Assembly (NCBI GenBank): GCA_020633315.1
Contig: JACKDV010000004.1
Coordinates: 576,071 to 587,987 of the forward strand
DNA: 11,917 nt
Direction: 5' to 3'
DNA from: Myxococcales bacterium
GTDB taxonomy: Bacteria > Myxococcota_A > Polyangia > Nannocystales > Nannocystaceae
The notes beneath the pieces are model-generated. The model had not been told where the DNA came from. It searched no databases and saw nothing but the letters and a program-made list of their open reading frames with translations. Of the stretch, positions 2 to 11,917 are shown piece after piece; positions within the stretch are counted from its first letter, which is position 1; every line of letters starts with the position of its first letter. A program made the translations under genes and the position numbers.

Positions 2-892
2 CTGCACGAGCAGGCCGCAGCGGCGGCCGTCGCCGCGCTGGGTCCCCAGCACCCCGCCGCCGCCCAGATGCGCGACAACGTGGCCACCCTGCGCTGGAGC
101 CTCGGCGATCGCGAGGCATCGCTCGAGCTCGCGCGAGAGATCATCGCCGATGCGCCCGAGCCGGGGGCGGGCGGCGATGCGCAGCGACGCTGCTCGCTCG
201 CGGGGCGCCTGCGGGAGGTGGGCCGCATGCAGGAGGCGCAGCAGGTCCTCGCGCCCGTGCTCGCCTCCGACGCGGCGCTGGAGCAGATGGAGCCCCCGTG
301 CCTGCTCATCGCCGGCTTCGGGCTGGCGATCGCGGGGCGACGACCCGAGGCGGCCCACCTCCGCGAGCTCCTCGAGCCGCGGCGAGCCAGCCTCCGCGAT
401 CCGCAGCTCCGCTACTGGTGGGATCTGCTCGAGGTGCTGCTGCGGGAGCCGGACGACCCCGAGGCCGCGGCCGCGTCGCTGCAGCGGATGTCGGAGGTGG
501 GCCGTTGGCTGTTCCCCGACGAGCCGAGCCTCACCCACTGGGCGCCGTCGCTGCTGGCCCGCAACCGCTGGCGCGCGGGAGACTGTGCCGGCGTCGAGCG
601 GGCGACCGCTCCCGTGCTCGAGGCGCTCGAGGGGCCGCTCGATCTCTCGCAGACCCGCTGCGCCTTCGTGCGGGCGCGCTGCTCGGCCGCCGCGGGCGAC
701 GAGGCCGGCGCCATGCGATGGCAGGCCGTCACCGCGCGCGGCCTGGCAGAGCTCGAGGTGGCCTCGGCCCCCGCCCAGGACCCCCTGGGGCCGTGGCTGG
801 AGCCCGATCCGGGGACCGACGAGAAATCCTCGAGCCCCCGAAATCCCGCGCCGGGCCCCGCGACACTGCCCCGGCATGACGATGATCCCTAG
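2..892 (+). CDS. 3' portion of a TPR-like helical-repeat protein; the reading frame is open to the window edge, so the gene continues upstream. The first ~50 aa align with the TPR tail of the Ser/Thr kinase at 8397..8546 (LHEQAAAAAVAALGPQHPAAAQMRDNVATLRWSLGDREASLELAREIIA vs LHRRALAISIAAQGPNNGTALSIRNNLALNYQAAGDLEAAIAELEALLE), and the C-terminal tail is similar too. Likely C-terminus of a paralogous kinase or TPR sensor.
   Basis: Frame 2 has no stop from base 2 to the TAG at 890-892. It contains a TPR_10/12-like motif (LGPxHPxTxxxxxNLAxxYxxxGxxxEA), GC3-rich codon usage, and is a paralogue of the tail of the 6414..8909 protein. Confidence 0.6.
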   Translation: MHEQAAAAAVAALGPQHPAAAQMRDNVATLRWSLGDREASLELAREIIADAPEPGAGGDAQRRCSLAGRLREVGRMQEAQQVLAPVLASDAALEQMEPPCLLIAGFGLAIAGRRPEAAHLRELLEPRRASLRDPQLRYWWDLLEVLLREPDDPEAAAASLQRMSEVGRWLFPDEPSLTHWAPSLLARNRWRAGDCAGVERATAPVLEALEGPLDLSQTRCAFVRARCSAAAGDEAGAMRWQAVTARGLAELEVASAPAQDPLGPWLEPDPGTDEKSSSPRNPAPGPATLPRHDDDP

Positions 893-2771
893 CCGTACCC
901 TTGGCCTGGAGCTCGCGCTGCTCGCCCTCGCCCCCCTCGCGGCGTGCTCCGAGCTGGAGCCCCGCGACCTGCTCGAGCAGGACCGCAGCATCGACGACGA
1001 AGACGTGGCGATGCCCCACGCGGTGTACTTCCCCCTGGTCACGCGCAAGGACCCGACCTGGGGCACCACCTCGATCACCTTCCACGACCTGGGCGGCACG
1101 ACCAATGCGTACGTGTTCGAGGCGCTCGATGCCGCGGGGCAGGTGGTGTGGTCGAGCGGGGTGGGGACGATCACCGCGGCCTCGGGCAGCTCCCAGCCGC
1201 TGCACCAGGTGGCCCTGCCCGAGGGCTTCCGCGGGTCGATGGTGCTCCGCAGCTCGCATCCCATGGCCGCCACCGCGGTGCAGACGGACCTGAGCAACCG
1301 CCCCATGTACAACGGCTCGACCTTCAACGACGGCGAGCGCGAGCTGTACCTACCCAGCGCCGAGTCCGGCCACGCGGCGCTGGTCGCCATCCAGAACGTG
1401 ACGATGCGCGACGTGACGGTGCAGGGCACCACCCTGGCCCCCGGCGCCTCGCTGCTGCTCTCGGGCTCGGCCCAGGTCACCCGCCTCGAGGCCAGCGGTC
1501 GCATCGCCGCGGTCACGCTCGAGGAGACCACCGCACGCTACGGCACCGCGACCGAGGCCGTCCCGGCGCGCACCCGCTCGGTGATGGCGATCGCCCAGTG
1601 CAAGGACTCGTGGCGCACCTACTCCTCGTACGAGCTGCACAACCCGCAGGGGGGCTGGGAGCAGGCGAGCATCCGCTACACCAACGGGCGCGAGCAGGCG
1701 GTGTGGCTGGCCCCCGGCGAGACCAAGCGGGTCTCCTCCTGCGACGCGGGCGATCGCGACTTCAACGGGGGGGCCGTGATCTCGGCGGGCGCCCCGGTCG
1801 CGGTCACCGGCTCGGTGCACCACATGGACCTGCCCGGCCGCACCGGCTTCGTGGGAGCGGCCAGCGGCGCGGAGATCGTGGCGCTGCCCTACGTGCGCTG
1901 GTGGCCGGATCCGTCGACCACCCAGCAACGCACGTACATCGCGGTGGCCAACACCTCCACCGATCGCTCCATCGACGTCGACGTGGCCTACTTCGACGCC
2001 AACGGCGGGCTGCTCGACACCCACTCGCTGGTCATCCCCCCCGAGGGCAAGGCCAACACCTTCCCGTGCCGCGACGGCGAGTGCGACTGCACGGGGCTGC
2101 TGAGGTTCGGCACCCCCGACGGCAACGAGGCGGCCCCGCGCTGTGACGATCCCTCCGCTCCCCTCGCGCCCCGTCGCTGGGGCGGCTCGGCGCGGATCAT
2201 CTCCAGCGATCCCCAGTCGGTGCTGGTGACGGCCCGCACCGCCACGGTCACCCCGGCCGGCGCGGCCTTCGACGCCGAGGACTACAACGGCGTGGCGGTG
2301 GATGCCCCCGACCTGCCGTTCATGGGCGTGCGCGGGCTGCCCAACGGGGCCCACACCCTGGAGTACCGGGTGGTGTCGCGCTGCAAGCCGGTCACCGCCG
2401 ACGAGATGGTCGCGGCCTACACCCTCGAGATGGACGTGGAGCTCGCCGGCAGCTCGGGCCACCGCACGATCACCATCGACGCCGTGCGGGCGCGCGACGG
2501 GTGGCACGCCGGCGACGTCGACGGCACCGTGCTCGACAGCCCCATCGGACACCCGCTGACGATCACTGGCCACGAGCCCGACGGCAGCACCGTGGTGTGG
2601 GACGCCGGCATCAGCCAGGGCTGGCTGCTCGAGCAAGGCAAGCAGTGGCTCCCCGACGTGCCCGCGCTCGACCTGCAGCGCGACCTGGTGCTCGAGACCA
2701 CGCTGGTCAACGGCGAGGAGAACGGCGCGGGCAACTGCGCGGCGATCCACCTGCTCGGCCTGCGCGACTGA
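876..2771 (+). CDS. Hypothetical secreted lipoprotein of ~631 aa with internally repeated beta-rich modules and no recognisable family. The signal peptide plus lipobox reads MTMIPSRTLGLELALLALAPLAAC|SE.
   Basis: There is an ATG at 876, with an alternative ATG at 882. Both lie in the same frame as the long ORF 150..2771, whose upstream part is a spurious extension overlapping the previous gene. The N-terminus has a basic n-region, a hydrophobic h-region and an L-A-A-C lipobox. The gene overlaps the previous CDS by 17 nt, which suggests translational coupling. Several Cys are present (CRDGECDC). Repeated segments resemble YxPxV...GxxxxVxVxN...D..G... Confidence 0.6.
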   Translation: MTMIPSRTLGLELALLALAPLAACSELEPRDLLEQDRSIDDEDVAMPHAVYFPLVTRKDPTWGTTSITFHDLGGTTNAYVFEALDAAGQVVWSSGVGTITAASGSSQPLHQVALPEGFRGSMVLRSSHPMAATAVQTDLSNRPMYNGSTFNDGERELYLPSAESGHAALVAIQNVTMRDVTVQGTTLAPGASLLLSGSAQVTRLEASGRIAAVTLEETTARYGTATEAVPARTRSVMAIAQCKDSWRTYSSYELHNPQGGWEQASIRYTNGREQAVWLAPGETKRVSSCDAGDRDFNGGAVISAGAPVAVTGSVHHMDLPGRTGFVGAASGAEIVALPYVRWWPDPSTTQQRTYIAVANTSTDRSIDVDVAYFDANGGLLDTHSLVIPPEGKANTFPCRDGECDCTGLLRFGTPDGNEAAPRCDDPSAPLAPRRWGGSARIISSDPQSVLVTARTATVTPAGAAFDAEDYNGVAVDAPDLPFMGVRGLPNGAHTLEYRVVSRCKPVTADEMVAAYTLEMDVELAGSSGHRTITIDAVRARDGWHAGDVDGTVLDSPIGHPLTITGHEPDGSTVVWDAGISQGWLLEQGKQWLPDVPALDLQRDLVLETTLVNGEENGAGNCAAIHLLGLRD

Positions 2772-2892: not shown

Positions 2893-4242
2893 CTACTCGG
2901 CGCTGAGGCTCGAGCCCTCGCGCGGCACCGTACGGTCGACCCCGGCCGCCTTGGGCCAGCCCAGCGCGTGCAGGAAGCCGATGGTCCCCCACAGCGCCGG
3001 CCAGAACCCGCGGAAGCTGCGGTAGGGGATCCCGTGGTCCTCGCAGGCCTCCCGCACCACCGGCGCGATCACGGGGTAGAGGTGCACGGCCATGCTGGGG
3101 AACAGGTGGTGCTCGATCTGGTGGTTGAGCCCGCCCGAGATGAAGTTGGACCAGCGCGAGGCGGAGCCCCAGTTGGTCGTGCCCATCACCTGCTGCTCGG
3201 CCCAGTGTCGATCGTTGGGCGGCACCAGGTCCTTCTGCAGGTGATTGACGATGAAGATCCCCTCCATGTAGTAGGAGCCGATCCCCAGCATCACCAGGGT
3301 GGTGAGCACGCCGTGCAGCGGTCCCAGCACCACCATGGGCAGCACCAGGTGCACGCTGCCCCAGGCCACCTTGTGCAGCATGGCCAGCGTCAGCGTGCGG
3401 CGCTCGAGGTGGAACGAGGCGTTGACCACCCGCCCCCGCAGCAGGTGGGTCACGTCGGAGACCAGCCACTTGACCATCCCGACGCTCATGCCGATGGCCA
3501 GCCCGATGTGCTGGATGCGGTGCCAGGGGCGGTGCGGGATCTCGGGGTGGAAGCGCAGCAGCGGCGTTCCGATCTCGCAGTCGTTGTCGTAGCCGTAGAT
3601 GTTGGGGTGGCCGTGGTGGGCGAACTGGTGGGCGTGCCGCCAGATGATGCTCGAGCCGCCGATGTACTCCATCAGCAGCCCGCACAGGCGGTTGCGGATC
3701 GAGCGGCGGGCCACCGCGGCGTGGTTGCCCGAGTGCATCAGGAAGCCCATCCGCGCCATCATCACGCCGCCGACGATGGCCGCGAGGTACGAGCCGTCGA
3801 AGGCGCGGAAGTACCAGGCCACCGCGTAGATCGAGGCCACGATCACCGCCTCGGTGGCCATGATCCATCCCCCCGAGCGGTAGTCGAGGCCGCGCTCGCG
3901 CAGGCGCTCGGCCACCCGCTGCTGCACGTCGTCGAAGAACGTGGGGTTGCCCCGGCTGAGGACCTCCGCCGGATCGAGCGAGCCCACGTGCCGCGTCCTG
4001 CGACCCAGCACCCGCCGCGCTCGCTCGAGCGACGGCCCCGGGTGGTAGGACTCGAACAGCGGAGTGGCCTGACGTCCGGCCGCGAGCTTGAGCAGCCCGC
4101 GACCGGGATGCTTGGGCATGAACTCGCCGAGGTCATAGACCTCGCCGTCCACCACGGTCCAGTACGTCCCGTCCCGGCCGTCGTGGCGGGCCACTTCCTC
4201 CATCGTGTACGTACGGGGTGCCAAGGGCCGTGAGCATGGCAC
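2893..4242 (-). CDS. Front-end-type membrane fatty-acid or sphingolipid desaturase with a fused N-terminal cytochrome b5 domain.
   Basis: The cytochrome b5 heme motif reads ...KHPGRGLLKLAAGRQATPLFESYH. The desaturase His boxes are HSGNH and HQFAHH. The third box, NHQIEHHLFP, carries the QxxHH variant that is diagnostic of front-end desaturases (delta-4/5/6/8). There is a hydrophobic transmembrane stretch between b5 and box 1. The GTG start at 4242 has an alternative ATG at 4203 (M14), so the start is uncertain. The stop is TGA/TAG at 2893. Confidence 0.85.
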   Translation of the reverse strand: MPCSRPLAPRTYTMEEVARHDGRDGTYWTVVDGEVYDLGEFMPKHPGRGLLKLAAGRQATPLFESYHPGPSLERARRVLGRRTRHVGSLDPAEVLSRGNPTFFDDVQQRVAERLRERGLDYRSGGWIMATEAVIVASIYAVAWYFRAFDGSYLAAIVGGVMMARMGFLMHSGNHAAVARRSIRNRLCGLLMEYIGGSSIIWRHAHQFAHHGHPNIYGYDNDCEIGTPLLRFHPEIPHRPWHRIQHIGLAIGMSVGMVKWLVSDVTHLLRGRVVNASFHLERRTLTLAMLHKVAWGSVHLVLPMVVLGPLHGVLTTLVMLGIGSYYMEGIFIVNHLQKDLVPPNDRHWAEQQVMGTTNWGSASRWSNFISGGLNHQIEHHLFPSMAVHLYPVIAPVVREACEDHGIPYRSFRGFWPALWGTIGFLHALGWPKAAGVDRTVPREGSSLSAE

Positions 4243-4409
4243 GAACCGCCGCGAGCCCCGGTCATCGCTCGGTCATAGTCTTGTCGCCGCAGCTCATCAG
4301 CCGTGACTTTTCCCGAGTGAGCTAGCTCGATGCGCAAGCTCGTTCACGCCCGAGCGCCGGCCGATCGCGCTTGCCAACCGTGCGCCTGCCGTGCAAAGAC
4401 CGCGCCGTG
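4243..4409. promoter_or_regulatory. Divergent intergenic region between the desaturase (-) and cfa (+). It is the lowest-GC stretch in the window. It contains a perfect 10-bp palindrome, GAGCTAGCTC (4319-4328), and a direct repeat of CGGTCAT at 4259-4265 and 4270-4276 (11-bp period).
   Basis: The motifs were read directly. No clear sigma-70 -35/-10 consensus was identified. Confidence 0.3.
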
Positions 4410-5603
4410 ATGATGGATGGGGCCAAGGCGATGAGCGCGGTGCGAGAGATGTTCGAGGCGGCCAGTCCCGCCAAGAGGGGTCAGCGCGCCGAGGCGGTGG
4501 TGCGCGAGCTCTTCGAGTACGCAGGGATCGACATCGGCGGGGGCTCTCGCGGCCACATGATCGTCCACGACGAGCGCTTCTACGAGCGCTTCTTGCGGGA
4601 CAAGTCCATCGGCCTGGGCGAGTCCTTCATGGACGGCTGGTGGACCACCGACGCTCTCGACGTGCTCATCGAGAAGATCCTGCGCGCAGACCTCAAGAGC
4701 AAGGTGACCGGGAGCTGGAAGCTCAAGCTGCTCACGGCCGAGGCCATGCTCTTCAACCGCCAGGACGTGGACCGGGCCCAGCGCTCGATCCAGGCCCACT
4801 ATGACATCGGCAACGACCTCTATGAGCGCATGCTGGACCCCCGCATGGTCTACACCTGCGCCTACTGGACGGGCGCCACCACCCTCGAGGAGGCCCAGGA
4901 CGCCAAGCTCGACCTGGTGTGCCGCAAGGTGGGCCTCGAGCCCGGCATGAAGGTGCTCGACCTGGGCTGCGGCTGGGGTGGCTTCGCCCTGTACGCGGCC
5001 GAGAAGTACGGCTGCACCGTGGAGGGTCTGACCATCTCCCGGGCGCAGGCCGAGCTGGGCCAGGCGCGGGCCAAGGCCTCGGGCCTGCCCGTCACGATCC
5101 GCCTGGCCGACTACCGCGAGGCCAAGGGCAAGTACGATCGCGTGGTCTCCATCGGGATGATGGAGCACGTGGGCCCCAAGAACTACCGCACCGTCATGCA
5201 GCTCATCCACGATTGCATGAAGGACGACTCGGTGGCGCTGGTCCACACCATCACCAACAATCGCAGCGTGGCCCACGGTACCCCCTTCGTGGAGAAGTAC
5301 ATCTTCCCCAACGCGGTCGCCCCCTCGCCCGCGCAGCTGTGCAAGGCGATGGAGGGCCTGATGGTGCTCGAGGACCTGCACAACATCGGCCCGCACTACG
5401 ACCCCACCCTGATGGCCTGGTGGGAGCGCTTCGACGCGTCCTACCCCGAGCTGCAGCACAAGTACGACCGCCGCTTCTACCGAATGTGGCAGTTCTACCT
5501 GCTGGGCGCCGCCGGAGCCTCCCGCTCCCGCGACGGGCAGCTGCTGCAGCTGGTGATGACCAAGACCGGGCGCAAGTACCCGGACCACTGCCGGGCGAGC
5601 TAG
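4410..5603 (+). CDS. cfa: Cyclopropane-fatty-acyl-phospholipid synthase (SAM-dependent CFA-synthase / mycolic-acid cyclopropane synthase family).
   Basis: It is collinear with E. coli Cfa over the whole length: IGLGESFMDGWW, HYDIGNDLYERMLDPRMVYTCAYW, the SAM motif VLDLGCGWGG, SIGMMEHVGPKNY, EKYIFPN, and the end LMAWWERF...YLLGAAGASRSRDGQLLQLV. The start is uncertain. The ORF opens with TTG at 4371. Other candidate starts are GTG 4380, GTG 4407, ATG 4410, ATG 4413 and ATG 4431. Comparison with the E. coli N-terminus favours 4410-4431. Confidence 0.88.
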   Translation: MMDGAKAMSAVREMFEAASPAKRGQRAEAVVRELFEYAGIDIGGGSRGHMIVHDERFYERFLRDKSIGLGESFMDGWWTTDALDVLIEKILRADLKSKVTGSWKLKLLTAEAMLFNRQDVDRAQRSIQAHYDIGNDLYERMLDPRMVYTCAYWTGATTLEEAQDAKLDLVCRKVGLEPGMKVLDLGCGWGGFALYAAEKYGCTVEGLTISRAQAELGQARAKASGLPVTIRLADYREAKGKYDRVVSIGMMEHVGPKNYRTVMQLIHDCMKDDSVALVHTITNNRSVAHGTPFVEKYIFPNAVAPSPAQLCKAMEGLMVLEDLHNIGPHYDPTLMAWWERFDASYPELQHKYDRRFYRMWQFYLLGAAGASRSRDGQLLQLVMTKTGRKYPDHCRAS

Positions 5604-5620
5604 CGAGCGCCCGCGAGCGC

Positions 5621-6220
5621 CTATGGCCGCGGCGCGGTGCCGTCCCTCGAGGCCTCGAGTCGGGCCATCATGGCGCTCGCTCGCTCGGGATCGGCCGAGA
5701 GCTGGTCGAAGGCGGCGCGCAGCAGCTTGCGGCCGCGATGCAGGCGGGTCCGCACGGTGGCGGTCTCGATCTCCAGCACGGCCGCGATCTCCGGCGAGGC
5801 GAGGCCCTCGAAGTAGTGCAGCTCGAGCGCGATCTGGAAGTCGATCGGCACTTGTCGCAGGGCCTCGATCATCAGCTCCCTGGACTCGGCGCGTCGGAAT
5901 GCGGTGCTCGGCGAGGGGCCGAGGTCACGCACCGAACAGCTGCCGAAGTCGACGTGGTCGCGGGCGCGGAGCCGGCGATAGTGCTGGTAGAGCATCCGCC
6001 GCGCCACCCCGAACAGGTACGCGCGAAAGCTGCCGTGCGCGATCCGATCGCGGCCCTCCACGCAGGCCAGCATCGTGGCCTGGATGAGATCCTCGACGCC
6101 GTCGTCGAGCTTGTAGTGGAAGAAGCCGACCAGCGAGTCGAAGTGGCGACCCAGCAGCTCCTCACCCGCCCTTCGATCACCTTCGCGCCAGCGCTGGAGC
6201 AGCTCGAGATCGGTGGACAT
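5621..6220 (-). CDS. ECF-family (sigma-70 group 4) RNA polymerase sigma factor.
   Basis: Region 2 reads LELLQRWREGDRRAGEELLGRHFDSLVGFFHYKL...DLIQATMLACVEG...FRAYLFGVARRMLYQHYRRLRAR. The region 4 HTH reads ALELHYFEGLASPEIAAVLEIETATVRTRLHRGRKLL. The ORF stays open upstream to 6415. The extra 65 aa are Pro/Arg-rich with no sigma homology, so the ATG at 6220 (MSTDLELLQRW) was chosen. The stop is TAG at 5621-5623. Confidence 0.8.
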   Translation of the reverse strand: MSTDLELLQRWREGDRRAGEELLGRHFDSLVGFFHYKLDDGVEDLIQATMLACVEGRDRIAHGSFRAYLFGVARRMLYQHYRRLRARDHVDFGSCSVRDLGPSPSTAFRRAESRELMIEALRQVPIDFQIALELHYFEGLASPEIAAVLEIETATVRTRLHRGRKLLRAAFDQLSADPERASAMMARLEASRDGTAPRP

Positions 6221-6413
6221 GGTCGGGGCAAGGATAGCAGCCGACGACTGGCGAACGCGCAGGAGCTCGCGCTGCCGGCCGGCCGGATGCGAGCGCGGCA
6301 TGTGAGGTCGGCGCTCGGACGGAGGCGAGCAAAGAGGTGGCAGCGCGGTCGCCACCGGGCACACTGATGCGTGGCGCCGGGCGTCGACCCTCGAGGTCCG
6401 GTAGCGCGCTGCC

Positions 6414-8909
6414 ATGGATCCTCGCCCCCGCCCTCATCGCTTGCACGCCGAGCGCATCCTGGCGCAGGTCAAGACCTCGCTCTTCGACGCGCCGACCTAT
6501 CGCGTGGGGCGCTTCGAGCTGCGCGAGCGGATCGGCGGCGGAGGCATGGGCATCGTCTATCGAGCGCACGATCCCGAGCTCGAGCGCGAGGTGGCGCTCA
6601 AGCTGCTGCACCACGACGATGCGAGGCCCGGCGGGGCGAGCCACGCCGACTCGCTCCGCGAGGCCCGGGCCGCCGCTCGCGTGGTGCACCCCAACGTGGT
6701 CACCGTGCACGAGGTGGGAATCGCGTGCGCGGAGGCCTATGTGGCGATGGAGCTCGTGCGTGGGACGACCCTGCGGCGCTGGCTCGAGGGAGCCCGCCGC
6801 TCGGTGCCCGAGATCCTCGACGTGTTCACGGCGGCGGGGCGAGGGCTGGCGGCGGCCCACGCCGCAGGAATCGTCCATCGCGACTTCAAGCCCGACAACG
6901 TGCTCATCCGTGACGACGGCCAGGTCAAGGTGGTCGACTTCGGCCTGGCCCGCGTGTGCTCCGAGACGGTGGAGTCCCTGGAGACGACGACCGGCGCCGA
7001 GGAGCCCTCCGGCGAGTCGGTGACCCACCGCTGGGCCGGGACGCCCGCGTACATGGCCCCCGAGCAGCACCAGGGCCGGGTCGCGTCGCCCCGCACCGAT
7101 CAGTTTGCGTTCTGCGTGTCGCTGCACGAGGCGCTCTTCGGGCACCGCCCGTCGGTCGAGCCCTCGACGGGCCGCGAGGAGCTGCCCCGAACGGAGGCCA
7201 CGGTCGCGGGACGAGCCGGGGTGCCGCGGCGTGTGCTCGCGGTGATCGAGCGCGGCCTGCAAGCGCAGCCGGCCGCGCGCTGGGACGGCATGGACGAGCT
7301 GCTCGACCGCCTCGAGCAGGCCCGGCGCCGACCGAAGCTCGCGCTGCCCATGGTCGTGGCGGGGATCGTGGCGGCGGGCGTCGCAGTCGCGACGTGGCCG
7401 ACCACGCCTTCGCCGGCCGTCTCGCCGCCCTGCGACGGGCCCGATCGCCTCGATGGGATCTGGGACGACGAGCACCGGGCGGCCCTCCACGAGGTGCTCG
7501 CGGCACCGGGCCGCGACGCCAGCCTCGCCGGCGACGTGGTCGAGCAGCTCGATGACTACGCGCAGCAGTGGGGTGAGGTCGATGCGCGCCACTGCGAGGC
7601 GATGCGAGGCCCCGTGGCCCACCCCGCCCTGGCGATCCGAGCCGAGCAGTGCATCGACGAGCGGCGGCTCGCCCTCGGAGCGCTGGTCGAGGTGATCACC
7701 GGGCCCGCCGAGCTGCCTCCCGACCGGGTACGGCAAGCGGTCGCCGCGTTGCCTCGCATGGAGGACTGCGCGGACGAGCTGCGCCTGCGGGCGATGCCGG
7801 CCCCGCCCCTGGATCCCGAGGTAGCCCGTCGCGTCCGCGAGCAGGAGCGGATCGTCGAGCGGGCCCACGCCCTCAACCTCGCCGGCCAGCGCGAGCAAGC
7901 GATGTCGGTCGCGACCGAGGCCATCGCCACCGCGCGCGAGATCGGCTACCCGCCGCTCCTGGTCGAGGCTCTCAGCGAGCTCGGCGAGGCCCAGGGCGCC
8001 CTCCGGCGCCCGGAGGCGGCGGCCACCCTGGAGGAAGCGGTGCTCATCGCCGAGGAAGCGGGCGACGACCTCGACAAGACCGAGATCTCGATCTACCTCG
8101 CGGCCTACACCGCCTACTACGCTCGTGACGTGGAGGCAGCGCGATCGCATGCTCGCCGCGCCTCGGCCTCGCTCGCTCGGATCGGCACCCCCTCCGACGT
8201 GGAGATACGCCTGCTGGCCGCCCGCGCCGGCATCGAGTGGGTCGCCGAGGACTACGACGCTGCGCTCGAGCTCGCCAACCAATCGATCGAGCGCTGGGAG
8301 GCCTCGGAGCGGGACGACCCCCAGCAGATCATCTCGCCGCTCACCATGGCGGCGAACATCCACACCATGCGCGACCAGTGGCAGCAAGCCGAGCAGCTCC
8401 ACCGCCGAGCGCTCGCGATCTCGATCGCCGCCCAGGGGCCGAACAACGGGACGGCGCTGTCGATCCGCAACAACCTCGCGCTGAACTACCAGGCCGCCGG
8501 AGATCTCGAGGCCGCCATCGCAGAGCTGGAGGCTCTGCTCGAGCTCCACCGGGCCCGCGGAGCCGACGGCCGCGTCGACGTGGCCCGCGTGATGCGGCTG
8601 CTGTGCGGCCTCCACCAGGACGAGGGGGACCTCGATCGCGCCGCGGCGTGCATCGGGCCCGCGCTCGCGGCCAGCACGGCCTTGGGGCTGCCGATGGAGC
8701 AGCGCCTGACCCTCATCCGAGCCGCGAAGATCCACCTCGCCCGCGGCGAGCTCGACGAGGCCATGCGCCAGGGCTGCCGGGCCCGGGCGCTGATCGAGGC
8801 CGAGCCCGAGCCCGATCGCTCGAGGGCACGGGCCCAGCTCGCCGCTGCCTTCGAGGGCAACGACGAGCCGAGCTCGGACCGCTGTGATCCCGACGACGCG
8901 GATCAGTAG
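6414..8909 (+). CDS. Hanks-type Ser/Thr protein kinase with a single transmembrane helix and a C-terminal Cys-containing, TPR-like repeat domain that is predicted to be extracytoplasmic.
   Basis: The kinase motifs are present: the Gly loop IGGGGMGIVYRA, VALKLL, the catalytic loop VHRDFKPDNVLI (Phe in place of the usual Leu/Ile/Val), VVDFGLA, and YMAPEQ closing a long acidic Ser/Thr-rich activation loop. The TM segment is LALPMVVAGIVAAGVAVATW. After the TM there are 4 Cys (PCDG, HCEAM, QCIDE, DCADE). The TPR-like repeats resemble LGPxxxxTLxxxNNLAxxYQAAGDLEAA. Confidence 0.9.
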   Translation: MDPRPRPHRLHAERILAQVKTSLFDAPTYRVGRFELRERIGGGGMGIVYRAHDPELEREVALKLLHHDDARPGGASHADSLREARAAARVVHPNVVTVHEVGIACAEAYVAMELVRGTTLRRWLEGARRSVPEILDVFTAAGRGLAAAHAAGIVHRDFKPDNVLIRDDGQVKVVDFGLARVCSETVESLETTTGAEEPSGESVTHRWAGTPAYMAPEQHQGRVASPRTDQFAFCVSLHEALFGHRPSVEPSTGREELPRTEATVAGRAGVPRRVLAVIERGLQAQPAARWDGMDELLDRLEQARRRPKLALPMVVAGIVAAGVAVATWPTTPSPAVSPPCDGPDRLDGIWDDEHRAALHEVLAAPGRDASLAGDVVEQLDDYAQQWGEVDARHCEAMRGPVAHPALAIRAEQCIDERRLALGALVEVITGPAELPPDRVRQAVAALPRMEDCADELRLRAMPAPPLDPEVARRVREQERIVERAHALNLAGQREQAMSVATEAIATAREIGYPPLLVEALSELGEAQGALRRPEAAATLEEAVLIAEEAGDDLDKTEISIYLAAYTAYYARDVEAARSHARRASASLARIGTPSDVEIRLLAARAGIEWVAEDYDAALELANQSIERWEASERDDPQQIISPLTMAANIHTMRDQWQQAEQLHRRALAISIAAQGPNNGTALSIRNNLALNYQAAGDLEAAIAELEALLELHRARGADGRVDVARVMRLLCGLHQDEGDLDRAAACIGPALAASTALGLPMEQRLTLIRAAKIHLARGELDEAMRQGCRARALIEAEPEPDRSRARAQLAAAFEGNDEPSSDRCDPDDADQ

Positions 8910-10111
8910 TCCCAGGCCACCGACACGATGAAGTTGCTGAACGCGGTGTCGATGCGACGGGCGAAGTTGCGGCGGCACACGTCGAAGCCGCACTTGAACA
9001 GGTCGAAGTACTCGCGGTAGCCCCACAGCACCCCGACCGGCCGGTTGATGTCGTACATGCGGTACCAGGGCGAGCCGCTCTGGCCGGAGACCGAGTCGAT
9101 GTTCTGCGACTCGATGCGCCAGTCGTTGATCTCCGACGCGCCACTCATGCCGCACATGTAGTTGCCCGAGCCGGGCGCGCCCGGGCAGGTGTCGCTGGGA
9201 TAGCCGTAGGTCGCGAAGGTCGAGTTGGCGGCGTTCGCCTGGTAGCCACCGAACCAGTTGGGCGCGCTGTGACACGGGAAGGTGTCCATCACCGCGTAGT
9301 CGAGGCTGTCCTGCTGTCCGGTGTAGTACCCGGCGGGCACCGACCACAGGTAGTCGTTGGTCGAGCTCGCATCGTCGAGGCGGCAGTCGAACGATCCGTA
9401 GGGCAGCGTGCCGCCGTTGCGCGCCGGCTGGAACACGATGCGGTTGACCCGGTCGGTGTCGCTGAACACCAGGCAGTGGGCGGAGGTGATCACGGTCCAC
9501 GGCCCGATGTAGGAGCCGCTGCACCAGCCGCGATAGGTGTTGCCGGTGTAGAGCTGGAGCTTGACGATCGCGTTGTAGGGCGCCACGGTGGTGTCGAACA
9601 CCCGGGTGCGGCCGTCGGGGCCGATGACCTGGCGCATGACCATGTCGGGCTCGACGCTCGGGCGTCCCTCACCCTCGCGATCGAGCACGTCGTACGACAG
9701 CGACTCCTTGGAGCCGGAGAGGACCGCGTCGGCGGCCTCCCACGCCGGCTCGCGGGCGACGTAGAGGGTGTCGTTGCCGGTGGCGATCACCGGGCGCAGC
9801 ATGTCGGCCAGCTCCTCGCGCGACCACGCATCGAGGGGGATGACCTCGCCGGGCTCCTCGGTGAAGGCTCGGCGGGGCATCAAGACCGCATCGGGGCCGG
9901 GCTCGACCTCTTGCTCGACTACGGGGCCGACGAGATCGAAGACCTCGCCGTCGCGCTCGATCTCGGTCTCGAGGGGCTGATCCTCTTCCTCGACCACGCA
10001 GCCGGCGGCCAGCGCAGTCAGCATGGTCAGCGTCAGCAAGCGACCGGACGGACGAAGCGGGGAGGAGAGCAGGTGGGGGGGCTCGTTGCAGGGACTGGGG
10101 TTGGTGCGCAT
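8903..10111 (-). CDS. Secreted trypsin-fold serine protease lipoprotein of subfamily S1B (glutamyl-endopeptidase/V8-like), with a ~150-aa acidic N-terminal pro-region.
   Basis: The catalytic His is in WTVITSAHC. The Asp is in the DYAVMD context. The Ser motif is GQSGSPW...VGVLWGY (compare V8 protease GNSGSPVF...IGIHWGG). The signal peptide with lipobox reads ...RLLTLTMLTALAAGC|VVEEED. There are multiple Cys pairs. A GAGGA Shine-Dalgarno sits 10 nt upstream of the ATG at 10111. Confidence 0.8.
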   Translation of the reverse strand: MRTNPSPCNEPPHLLSSPLRPSGRLLTLTMLTALAAGCVVEEEDQPLETEIERDGEVFDLVGPVVEQEVEPGPDAVLMPRRAFTEEPGEVIPLDAWSREELADMLRPVIATGNDTLYVAREPAWEAADAVLSGSKESLSYDVLDREGEGRPSVEPDMVMRQVIGPDGRTRVFDTTVAPYNAIVKLQLYTGNTYRGWCSGSYIGPWTVITSAHCLVFSDTDRVNRIVFQPARNGGTLPYGSFDCRLDDASSTNDYLWSVPAGYYTGQQDSLDYAVMDTFPCHSAPNWFGGYQANAANSTFATYGYPSDTCPGAPGSGNYMCGMSGASEINDWRIESQNIDSVSGQSGSPWYRMYDINRPVGVLWGYREYFDLFKCGFDVCRRNFARRIDTAFSNFIVSVAWDY

Positions 10112-10439: not shown

Positions 10440-11852
10440 TCAGCCGTCGCGGCGGCGCACGTCGAGCCACACGCCCTGCGTGGGCCGCAGGGTGACCGAG
10501 GTGCTCAGCCGCAGCGGCGGCGCCGAGTCGTAGGGGCTCACCTCGAGCCGCTGCACGAGGGTGGCCAGCACCAGCACGCCCTCGAGCATGGCGAAGTGGT
10601 TGCCCACGCAGATCCGCGGGCCGCCGCCGAAGGGGAAGTAGGCGAAGCGATGCAGCCGCGCGGCGAGGCCATCGAGCCAGCGCTCGGGCCAGAACAGCTC
10701 GGGCGCGGGGAACCACCGGGGGTCGCGGTGCACCACCCACTGCCCGGTGAGCAGCTGGGCGCCCTTGGGCATGGGGAAGCCGGCGATCTCGCGGTCCTCG
10801 AGCAGCTCGCGTCCCACCAGGTAGGCGGGAGGATACAGGCGCATGGACTCGCGCAGCACGGCGTCACACAGGCGCAGCCGCGGTAGGTCGTCGACGGTGG
10901 CCGGGCGATCGCCGAGCACCTCGTCGAGCTCGGCCCGCAGCGCCCGCGCGACCCGAGGGTGATGGGCCAGCAGGTACAGGGCATAGGAGAGCGCGAGGGC
11001 GGTGGTCTCGTGGCCGGCGAGGAACACGGTGGCCACCTCGTCGCGGAGCTGCCGATCGCTCATGCCCTTGCCCTCGTCGTCCTGGGCCGCGAGCAGGCGA
11101 TCGAGCAGGTCGGCATCGCCGGCCACGGCCCGTCCCCGGCGGGCGGCGATGAGCTCGTAGAGGATCGCGTCGAGGCGCCCGACGGCATCGTCGATGCGGG
11201 CGAAGGCGGCCACCCGCAGGCGCCGAGGCAGCAGGCGGCGCCAGGTGAGGAACTCGCGGCCGTAGCCCTCCATCAGGGTGTCGACGATCTCCCCCACCCC
11301 GTCGATGTCGCGCACGGTGTCGGCCCCGAACATGGTGTCGAGCACGATCTCGAGGGTGATGCGCATCATGTCGGCGTGGACGTCCCGGCGCGAGCGGGCG
11401 GGCAGGGCCTCCACGCCCCGGCGGCTGCGCTCCACCATGGCCTCGCCGAAGCGCTCGATGTGGCGGGGCTGGAAGGAGGGCGCGGCGATCTTGCGCTGCC
11501 GTCTCCACAGCTCGCCCTCGCTGGTGAGCAGGCCCTGGCCCACGATGAGCGAGAGCGTGCGGGTGAGCTCGTCCTTCATCACGTGGGCATGCTCGCCCAC
11601 GAGCACGGTCTGGATGTCGTCGGGGTGGTTGAGCAGGTAGAGCTCGGCCAGCGGCATCGAGACGTAGACGACGTCGCCGTAGCGCTCGCGGTAGCGCACC
11701 ATCGAGCCGAGGAAGTCGGAGGAGAAGGCGAGCCCGGAGCCGAGCAGGGGCAGCGCGCGAGGACCCGGAGGACGACGTCGTCCCCCGCGATCGACCCGCG
11801 AGGAGCCGAGCACGACGCGAGGGTAGGCCGACGTGGTGGCGGTCGAGCTCAC
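10440..11852 (-). CDS. Cytochrome P450 monooxygenase of the CYP4/CYP102-like clan (fatty-acid hydroxylase-like), heme domain only with no fused reductase.
   Basis: The I-helix motif is FLAGHETTA. The K-helix ExxR is ESMRLYPP. PERW is present. The heme-binding loop is FPFGGGPRICVGNHFAMLEG. N-terminal PPGP is present. GLLTSEGELWRRQRKIAAPSF resembles P450BM3 [23 protein letters not shown]. The start is GTG at 11852, with an in-frame TAG 9 nt upstream. Confidence 0.85.
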   Translation of the reverse strand: MSSTATTSAYPRVVLGSSRVDRGGRRRPPGPRALPLLGSGLAFSSDFLGSMVRYRERYGDVVYVSMPLAELYLLNHPDDIQTVLVGEHAHVMKDELTRTLSLIVGQGLLTSEGELWRRQRKIAAPSFQPRHIERFGEAMVERSRRGVEALPARSRRDVHADMMRITLEIVLDTMFGADTVRDIDGVGEIVDTLMEGYGREFLTWRRLLPRRLRVAAFARIDDAVGRLDAILYELIAARRGRAVAGDADLLDRLLAAQDDEGKGMSDRQLRDEVATVFLAGHETTALALSYALYLLAHHPRVARALRAELDEVLGDRPATVDDLPRLRLCDAVLRESMRLYPPAYLVGRELLEDREIAGFPMPKGAQLLTGQWVVHRDPRWFPAPELFWPERWLDGLAARLHRFAYFPFGGGPRICVGNHFAMLEGVLVLATLVQRLEVSPYDSAPPLRLSTSVTLRPTQGVWLDVRRRDG

Positions 11853-11917
11853 CGGGTCACCCTAGCACCCGAGGAGAATGCGAACGTTGCGACACGCGCT
11901 CCTCGAGTGATTCGTAG

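Follow-up and report, generated by a model that had tools for sequence, protein, structure and literature searches.

We examined a stretch of 11,917 nucleotides (hereafter the window; G+C content ~71%) from a Myxococcales bacterium of the family Nannocystaceae (GenBank assembly GCA_020633315.1, contig JACKDV010000004.1, positions 576,071 to 587,987), in which a gene for an extracytoplasmic function (ECF) sigma factor lies divergent to a gene for a transmembrane serine/threonine kinase. With a conserved kinase neighbour and no co-encoded anti-sigma factor, the pair is a kinase-associated ECF system and a well-supported case of an already catalogued class. We posit that the receptor kinase controls the adjacent sigma factor in place of an anti-sigma factor, which as a whole is the best explanation of our data and to which we assign a probability of roughly 0.55. 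Functional coupling of the two proteins is in itself very probable, and that the kinase directly phosphorylates the sigma factor is plausible from published precedent, at about even odds.

Conservation of the sigma-kinase pair

The genes and elements of the pair are listed below in window coordinates (aa, amino acids).

5621-6220, minus strand: ECF (group 4) sigma-70 family gene, 199 aa (Pfam, NCBIfam)
5903-5950, minus strand: sigma2/sigma4 linker D91-F-G-S-C-S96-V-R-D99-L-G-P-S103-P-S105-T106, conserved in homologues; candidate phospho-acceptor segment
6089-6100, minus strand: sigma2.2 core-binding motif G41-V-E43-D44 (HMMER alignment to SigE)
6221-6413, no strand: divergent intergenic spacer, 193 bp
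6231-6239, minus strand: TGCTATCCT, an extended -10-like element that stops 10 nt short of the sigma ATG
6336-6356, no strand: inverted repeat GGTGGC-N9-GCCACC (terminator-like scan, minus strand)
6414-8909, plus strand: gene for a Hanks-type transmembrane Ser/Thr kinase, 831 aa (Pkinase, TPR_12)
6441-6494, plus strand: short helix N-terminal to the kinase domain (RLHAERILAQVKTSLFDA, aa 10-27; from an alignment of 52 sigma-adjacent kinases)
6510-7283, plus strand: kinase catalytic domain, aa 33-290; no catalytic motif is missing
7332-7406, plus strand: single predicted transmembrane helix, aa ~307-331 (Kyte-Doolittle)
7407-8906, plus strand: predicted extracytoplasmic region, a helical Cys module of ~130 aa followed by ~8 TPR-like repeats (AlphaFold2, Foldseek)

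The spacer between the two gene starts is exactly the 193 bp given by the first-pass annotation of the window. The kinase start at 6414 was set by the N-terminus MDPRPRP, which is common to the orthologues. At 100% identity the protein matches P0121, a Myxococcales bacterium protein with the annotation serine/threonine protein kinase. The sigma factor begins with MSTDLE and is 100% identical to P0001 from a Myxococcales metagenome-assembled genome. A longer open reading frame of 264 aa, starting from an ATG at 6415, was ruled out by codon-position G+C and by the starts of the homologues. Its 65-codon upstream extension has G+C values of 0.74/0.66/0.77 at codon positions 1/2/3, compared with 0.72/0.47/0.89 in the core, and thus shows no coding bias at the third position; it is also missing in P0001 and in the homologues, which begin at the equivalent of MSTDLE. 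The shorter start of 199 aa was adopted because the extension has neither a coding bias nor a counterpart in homologues.

Conserved adjacency in relatives had been named as a check on the proposed coupling, and the pairing is indeed retained. The three closest relatives (L087, L081 and L084) keep the divergent pair, and their other neighbours differ with the exception of a 402-aa gene in L087. In this locus, where the kinase is 82% identical, the sigma gene, a spacer of 213 bp, the kinase and the 402-aa gene are all kept, while a CHAT-like gene replaces the cyclopropane-fatty-acid synthase homologue (cfa) and a Lipase_3 gene replaces the cytochrome P450 gene. The sigma factor and kinase of L081 are 76% and 48% identical (the latter over 801 aa) and are separated by 87 bp; for L084 the values are 73% for the sigma factor and 62% for the kinase N-terminus, with a spacer of ~79 bp. 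The downstream genes of both loci are all different.

A scan of relatives, with one genome per species, returned at least 551 matches to the sigma family, of which the best 80 loci (81 copies) were analysed. All of these belong to Nannocystaceae, Polyangia or other Myxococcota, often with several copies per genome. A kinase gene is directly adjacent to the sigma gene in 50 of the 81 copies (62%) and lies within one gene in 56. Of the 50 adjacent kinase genes, 24 are divergent within 700 bp, 14 directly follow the sigma gene in the same orientation, seven precede it in the same orientation and five are convergent; six further copies have the kinase one gene away. Since the arrangement varies in this way while the pair is kept, a partnership at the protein level is favoured over an operon or promoter link. 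The kinase is the sole widely recurrent neighbour, the largest other cluster containing 5 of 241 flanking proteins (BLAST clustering). This, together with the retention of the pair in the three closest relatives, supports the functional coupling of sigma factor and kinase that was suggested at first pass. Sigma and kinase distances correlate as well (Mantel r = 0.60; permutation maximum 0.14), and in 39 of the 52 pairs the nearest relative of the sigma factor has a kinase that ranks among the three nearest kinases.

The first-pass annotation had seen no canonical anti-sigma factor next to the pair. This holds for the window, in which no gene matches an anti-sigma, STAS or PhyR/NepR family (Pfam, NCBIfam), and for the 80 loci, in which no anti-sigma gene recurs downstream on the same strand or among the three genes on each side (BLAST clusters, not Pfam-scanned). 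A 201-aa gene that overlaps the sigma stop codon in L084 was considered as a hidden anti-sigma gene and rejected, having no Pfam match and no counterpart elsewhere. In one subclade (L018, L019, L026 and L036), a kinase, the sigma factor and a membrane protein of ~595 aa are encoded in this order, all on one strand. The membrane protein, whose N-terminus resembles SppA (signal-peptide peptidase), may belong to the regulon of these paralogues.

Architecture and expression of the kinase and the sigma factor

The kinase matches Pkinase in Pfam (E = 1e-35) and additionally TPR_12. Among the 52 sigma-adjacent kinases, the G-loop, K63, E83, H155-R-D157, K159, N162, D175-F-G177 and GTPxYMAPE are conserved in 94-100%, and judged by these Hanks-type motifs, all of which it carries, the kinase is catalytically intact. 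Its only Kyte-Doolittle window above 1.6 falls at aa ~307-331, with RRRPK preceding it on the cytoplasmic side. With a single hydrophobic helix that RRRPK precedes, the topology predicts an extracytoplasmic location for the 500 C-terminal aa. The extracytoplasmic sensor domain that was proposed at first pass is thus corroborated, in the form of one membrane helix and a predicted outside TPR solenoid. AlphaFold2 (AF2) models the extracytoplasmic region as all alpha-helical with a predicted local distance difference test score (pLDDT) of 90.2 and a predicted template modelling score (pTM) of 0.87, and by Foldseek it is most similar to the TPR domains of LGN/Pins, kinesin light chain and Rap/NprR, which bind peptides or proteins. 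In a word-index search, 14 of 16 sensor-domain homologues were kinases and two were remote TPR proteins outside a transmembrane-receptor context, with no sign of domain swapping.

Two further segments of the kinase stand out. The Cys module has three invariant cysteines and a fourth that is conserved in the consensus, which suggests periplasmic disulfides. Located next to the membrane (aa ~342-459; 7437-7790, plus strand), the module also contains an invariant Trp and an invariant Asp and is without family annotation. The helix before the catalytic domain carries the motif L-x-A-x-V-R-x-x-L-F-G, which is common to the 52 sigma-adjacent kinases; that it serves as a docking element is speculation.

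The sigma factor is matched by Sigma70_r2, Sigma70_r4_2 and Sigma70_ECF in Pfam, with 36 bits to PF07638, and in NCBIfam only the ECF superfamily model TIGR02937 exceeds its cutoff. The AF2 model consists of two helical domains (pLDDT 86.6, pTM 0.84). With its sigma2 and sigma4 domains and a short linker, the protein is an ECF (group 4) sigma factor, and the solved structures nearest to the family profile are Escherichia coli RpoE and Pseudomonas aeruginosa AlgU (E ~1e-22, full length, ~84 bits). Two other features of the protein were observed. Residue C53 (6062-6064, minus strand), in the sigma2 motif L-A-C-V-E, is a nearly invariant Cys at a position where RpoE has Tyr, and it is the sole Cys conserved throughout the family alignment. 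In the C-terminal tail (5624-5692, minus strand), most family members show the motif S-T-L-x-x-L-D-x-W-A after sigma4, with its Thr present in 63-94% of members; the window protein and the three relatives closest to it have a degenerate form (AMMARLEAS).

The HMMER alignment places 'dgvEDLiQaT' of the sigma factor opposite 'HDAEDLTQET' of Mycobacterium tuberculosis SigE, which makes GVED the equivalent of DAED. An acidic residue occupies the position of D44 in every member (100%). At position 43 the share of acidic residues is 74-79% and that of Ser/Thr 0%, both among 121 database homologues and among the kinase-adjacent genome copies. The linker between sigma2 and sigma4 is strongly conserved in this family, unlike ECF linkers in general, which have been reported to be unconserved (PMC6648896). 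Among the 121 homologues, D91 is acidic in 98%, S96 is Ser/Thr in 100%, D99 is acidic in 89%, S103 is Ser/Thr in 64%, P104 is conserved in 92%, and S105 is Ser/Thr in 74% and acidic in 1%. A check for conserved Ser/Thr residues that could accept a phosphate, as suggested at first pass, hence returned S96, S103 and S105 in the linker and none at position 43. Residues 103-111 have pLDDT values below 50 and are modelled as a flexible, disordered loop. HMMER pairs S105 with the Glu in the 'xPE' motif of RpoE, AlgU and SigE and with an Asp of SigL. The residue in RpoE is E119 (our numbering), the first residue of the linker tail, and the ECF linker occupies the active-centre cleft and the RNA-exit channel of RNA polymerase (PMC6648896).

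Upstream of the sigma gene, the -10-like element TGCTATCCT is conserved in L087 and L081. In 31 of 37 sigma genes of the family, a TAnnnT sequence, often extended to TGnTAnnnT, starts 10-22 nt upstream of the ATG; among neighbouring genes this holds for 2 of 21. A scan of 5500-6600 for the sigma-70 consensus gave no match. We infer from the -10-like element that the sigma transcript is leaderless or near-leaderless and arises from a housekeeping-type promoter. Such a promoter fits a sigma factor that would be made constitutively and controlled after translation. The same layout was seen at the P450 gene, where TGCTAGGGT (11858-11866, minus strand) ends 6 nt before the GTG start.

An autoregulatory ECF promoter was rejected as a candidate, with the best bipartite motif upstream of 84 family sigma genes reaching a maximum of 12 against maxima of 9-12 in shuffles. 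The inverted repeat in the spacer has a T-rich stretch behind it on the minus strand. Its stem is retained in L087 with a loop of 6 nt, and it is missing from the short spacers of L081 and L084. The repeat could represent a hairpin in the 5' untranslated region of the kinase gene, an insulator-like terminator or an operator.

Proposed mechanism and alternative explanations

ECF groups that are linked to a kinase and lack an anti-sigma factor have been catalogued as ECF43, ECF59-62, ECF217, ECF267 and ECF283 (PMC7826278). ECF43 is marked by an uncharged sigma2.2 in which a Thr is conserved (present in 88% of members; consensus QTTA) (PMC8999054, PMC13147305). Groups other than ECF43 retain a DAED-like motif, and their mode of action may be different (PMC8999054); for ECF59-62, ECF217, ECF267 and ECF283 the reviews report no experimental characterisation (PMC7826278, PMC8999054). 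The window pair resembles these other groups in its conserved kinase neighbour, a DAED-like motif and, as is usual for them, no anti-sigma factor. An ECF43-type sigma2.2 was rejected for the window sigma factor, which reads G41-V-E43-D44 and belongs to a family in which the position equivalent to the Thr is never Ser or Thr among the 121 database homologues and the kinase-adjacent copies. ECF267, a proteobacterial group of the ECF02 (RpoE) clade, was described from no more than 28 proteins, and a FecR-like TPR protein is encoded nearby (PMC7826278), whereas the window family has no recurrent neighbour other than the kinase (BLAST clusters, not Pfam-scanned). Judged by sequence similarity, the window sigma factor may belong to ECF267 or to a neighbouring group in the RpoE clade.

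Both experimentally tested kinase-linked pairs share features with the window pair. In Vibrio parahaemolyticus, the kinase PknT directly phosphorylates the ECF43 sigma factor EcfP, which is intrinsically inactive because its sigma2.2 reads STTA and has no acidic residue, until a phospho-Thr provides the charge (PMC8999054). As in our proposal for the window, the kinase replaces an anti-sigma factor and provides a one-step transmembrane route to sigma activity. EcfP, however, needs the charge of a phospho-Thr, whereas the window sigma factor already has E43 and D44, and because its sigma2.2 is already acidic, the charge-restoring mechanism of EcfP cannot be its switch. The second kinase, PknS of Xanthomonas citri, is an 833-aa transmembrane protein with periplasmic TPRs that phosphorylates the ECF43 sigma factor EcfK at T51 and, in the linker, at T104, T106, S108 and S110; these linker sites, T106 among them, matter for function, and T106 has been modelled against a basic patch of beta' (PMC13147305). 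Here the likeness extends to a sigma factor beside a Hanks-type receptor kinase of nearly equal length (833 vs 831 aa) and the same layout, to the lack of an anti-sigma factor, and to the linker, in which the segment that carries phosphosites in EcfK is Ser-rich, conserved and flexible in the window sigma factor. The two systems differ in sigma2.2 (QATE with phospho-T51 in EcfK, G/D-V-E/D-D without Ser/Thr in the window family) and in the N-terminal extension of the kinase (83 aa in PknS, 30 aa in the window kinase); the extension of PknS is conserved, too. Moreover, the window family occurs in multiple copies in Myxococcota genomes, and no type VI secretion genes are present in the window. 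For these comparisons, ~94% of EcfK was rebuilt from published mass-spectrometry peptides. The rebuilt protein scores 14.7 bits with the family hidden Markov model (HMM), compared with ~84 bits for RpoE/AlgU, and BLAST to EcfK covers 25 N-terminal residues. In the alignment, the phospho-threonine T51 (motif QATE) stands opposite E43 of the window sigma factor, and the family HMM pairs T104-S110 of EcfK with D99-S105.

RpoE and AlgU (ECF02) are held by co-transcribed membrane anti-sigma factors (RseA and MucA) and freed by proteolysis. As the nearest solved relatives they share an acidic sigma2.2 and the linker motif (D/E)-(I/L)-x-x-P with the window sigma factor, but their partner is an anti-sigma factor, whereas the window sigma factor has a kinase partner and no anti-sigma gene in the window. 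RpoE E119, the Glu after the linker Pro, is Ser/Thr in the window family. Partner-switching modules such as RsbW/RsbV, SpoIIAB/AA and PhyR/NepR employ a GHKL anti-sigma kinase together with a STAS protein, or a PhyR-like sigma mimic together with NepR. A partner switch had been offered at first pass and is not supported, as the window contains no gene for a GHKL-type anti-sigma kinase, a STAS anti-anti-sigma factor or a PhyR/NepR-like protein, and the kinase is of the Hanks type.

According to our proposal, an extended -10 promoter of the housekeeping type would drive the sigma gene and yield a near-leaderless mRNA, and the gene would probably not be autoregulated. A ligand would bind the periplasmic TPR domain and activate the kinase; it is most likely a peptide or protein, because the nearest folds are TPR domains that bind such ligands. 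The activated kinase would then phosphorylate the sigma factor directly. Because E43 and D44 are already acidic, the phosphosite would lie not in sigma2.2 but in the linker, at S103-P-S105-T106 and perhaps S96. The conserved, flexible, Ser-rich character of this segment makes it the best candidate for the phospho-acceptor, an assignment that we regard as tentative and of low probability. As in solved ECF holoenzymes, the linker would thread through the active-centre cleft and RNA-exit channel of RNA polymerase, placing S105 where RpoE, AlgU, SigE and SigL have Glu or Asp.

Several observations weigh against this proposal. In 25 of the 81 copies the kinase is distant or absent from the flank, a few of these loci ending at contig ends. 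For sigma distances above 0.40, that is among distant paralogues, Mantel r is ~0 and deep co-divergence is absent; because the correlation vanishes once close relatives are removed, it shows joint inheritance of the two genes and is no evidence of an interface. The alignment with the EcfK linker is of low confidence, given 14.7 bits overall and a register that is ambiguous by 2-7 residues. Differential conservation, by which the phospho-acceptor was sought, failed to single one out, with equal Ser/Thr frequencies at S96, S103, S105 and T106 in kinase-adjacent (n=58) and other copies (n=26). The conserved Ser/Thr residues of the linker may instead be structural, and S96-x-x-D99 may be a helix N-capping box, which it resembles at helix 97-100 of the AF2 model. 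Lastly, the acidic residues E43 and D44 together with D91 and D99 of the linker may allow binding to core polymerase without a phosphate.

Other explanations of the pairing were considered. Indirect control by the kinase through an unlinked anti-sigma factor, as for PknB with RshA or RseA in M. tuberculosis, or sequestration of the sigma factor by the cytoplasmic part of the kinase with its N-terminal helix, which would keep it at the membrane until activation frees it, would supply the negative regulator that a constitutively made sigma factor with an intact sigma2.2 would need. PknB does phosphorylate both SigH and RshA (cited in PMC13147305), and the conserved pre-kinase helix is specific to sigma-adjacent kinases, which would suit sequestration. 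However, an anti-sigma-like gene is neither present in the window nor recurrent in the 80 loci, the N-terminal segment of 30 aa is far shorter than a class I anti-sigma domain, and sequestration by a Hanks kinase is not described in the cited kinase-ECF literature, so that we consider this explanation unlikely. A reversed relationship, in which the sigma factor drives the kinase gene or is merely co-regulated with it and the kinase acts on other substrates, appears somewhat less probable still. The evidence from adjacency is symmetrical in this respect, the kinase gene could be co-transcribed in the 14 loci where it lies directly downstream on the same strand, and a sigma factor with an intact acidic sigma2.2 and acidic linker residues has no obvious need for phosphorylation. 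Against this, no ECF-type bipartite motif is shared upstream, the partnership is kept through divergent, tandem and convergent orientations, and a sigma factor that has intact core-binding determinants and a housekeeping-type promoter and lacks an anti-sigma factor would be left without a signal input. In both experimentally tested pairs, furthermore, it is the kinase that acts on the sigma factor (PMC8999054, PMC13147305).

Fortuitous adjacency deserves consideration in myxobacteria, which are rich in kinases and ECF sigma factors; Sorangium genomes carry 317-508 kinases (PMC3696898), and the sigma family itself is present in several copies per genome. The flanks of the analysed loci contain 12 other kinase-domain matches in ~905 kb, and based on this background ~3% of the copies would be expected to have an adjacent kinase by chance, compared with the 62% observed. 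The pair is also kept in three close relatives among otherwise different neighbours. Chance adjacency is therefore refuted in effect, and its probability is negligible. Control of the sigma factor by the receptor kinase remains our preferred explanation.

Neighbouring genes and significance of the module

The remaining genes of the window were delimited by codon-position G+C and family searches, unless indicated otherwise.

2-892, plus strand: C-terminal fragment of a TPR protein
876-2771, plus strand: lipoprotein of 631 aa without a family match
2893-4242, minus strand: cytochrome-b5/fatty-acid desaturase fusion
4371-5603, plus strand: cyclopropane-fatty-acid synthase homologue (cfa)
8903-10111, minus strand: lipoprotein of 402 aa resembling glutamyl endopeptidase (match to PDB 1p3c)
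10440-11852, minus strand: cytochrome P450

The first-pass annotation had placed the pair between lipid-modifying genes and proposed envelope-lipid homeostasis as its regulon. On one side cfa and the desaturase gene are located; on the other side, the direct downstream neighbour of the kinase is the 402-aa protease-like gene and not a lipid gene, with the P450 gene beyond it. The regulon itself is not supported, since none of the relatives L087, L081 and L084 has cfa, the desaturase gene or the P450 gene beside the pair, and no ECF-like bipartite motif is shared. For the latter, the first-pass annotation had recommended a comparison of the regions upstream of the lipid genes and the sigma gene, and the window genes were searched for a shared upstream motif consisting of a 5-mer, a gap of N15-18 and a 4-mer. 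The only shared motif in this search was a palindromic CGAGC...GCTC(G) on both strands of two divergent spacers, which is not ECF-like.

The 402-aa protein combines a lipoprotein-type signal (…LAAGC) with an S1 protease domain resembling glutamyl endopeptidase. It matches PDB 1p3c with E = 1.8e-10, carries the motifs TSAHC and GQSGSP and has no Pfam match. Its gene is convergent with the 3' end of the kinase gene, with an overlap of 7 bp; of the relatives, only the closest, L087, has it beside the pair (87% identity). At the other end, the protein encoded at 2-892 runs off the left end of the window, shows 31% identity to the TPR region of the kinase over 96 aa and may be another TPR receptor. 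The 3' end of its gene overlaps the start of the 631-aa lipoprotein gene by 17 bp.

Kinase-controlled ECF sigma factors are a recently validated third route from envelope to transcription, besides anti-sigma factors and two-component systems, and have so far been studied in members of ECF43 only. Taken by itself, the window provides a modest result, namely a sound annotation from which the proposed link to lipid genes has been removed. Its interest lies in the question of how a kinase could gate a sigma factor that has an acidic core-binding patch. In the abundant myxobacterial family to which the module belongs, this patch is already charged, so that the published mechanism is not its switch. 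A Myxococcota-specific, RpoE-related ECF family with a constitutively acidic sigma2.2, a phospho-switch confined to the linker and arrays of orthogonal TPR-receptor kinase-sigma pairs in each genome is conceivable but, in our view, improbable in this full form. If it were true, phosphorylation would gate open-complex formation or promoter escape rather than core binding, and the sigma factor would be supplied constitutively from leaderless transcripts of the housekeeping type. The family offers many naturally orthogonal kinase-sigma pairs and represents a test case both for the other kinase-linked ECF groups and for the idea that linker phosphorylation alone may gate an ECF sigma factor.

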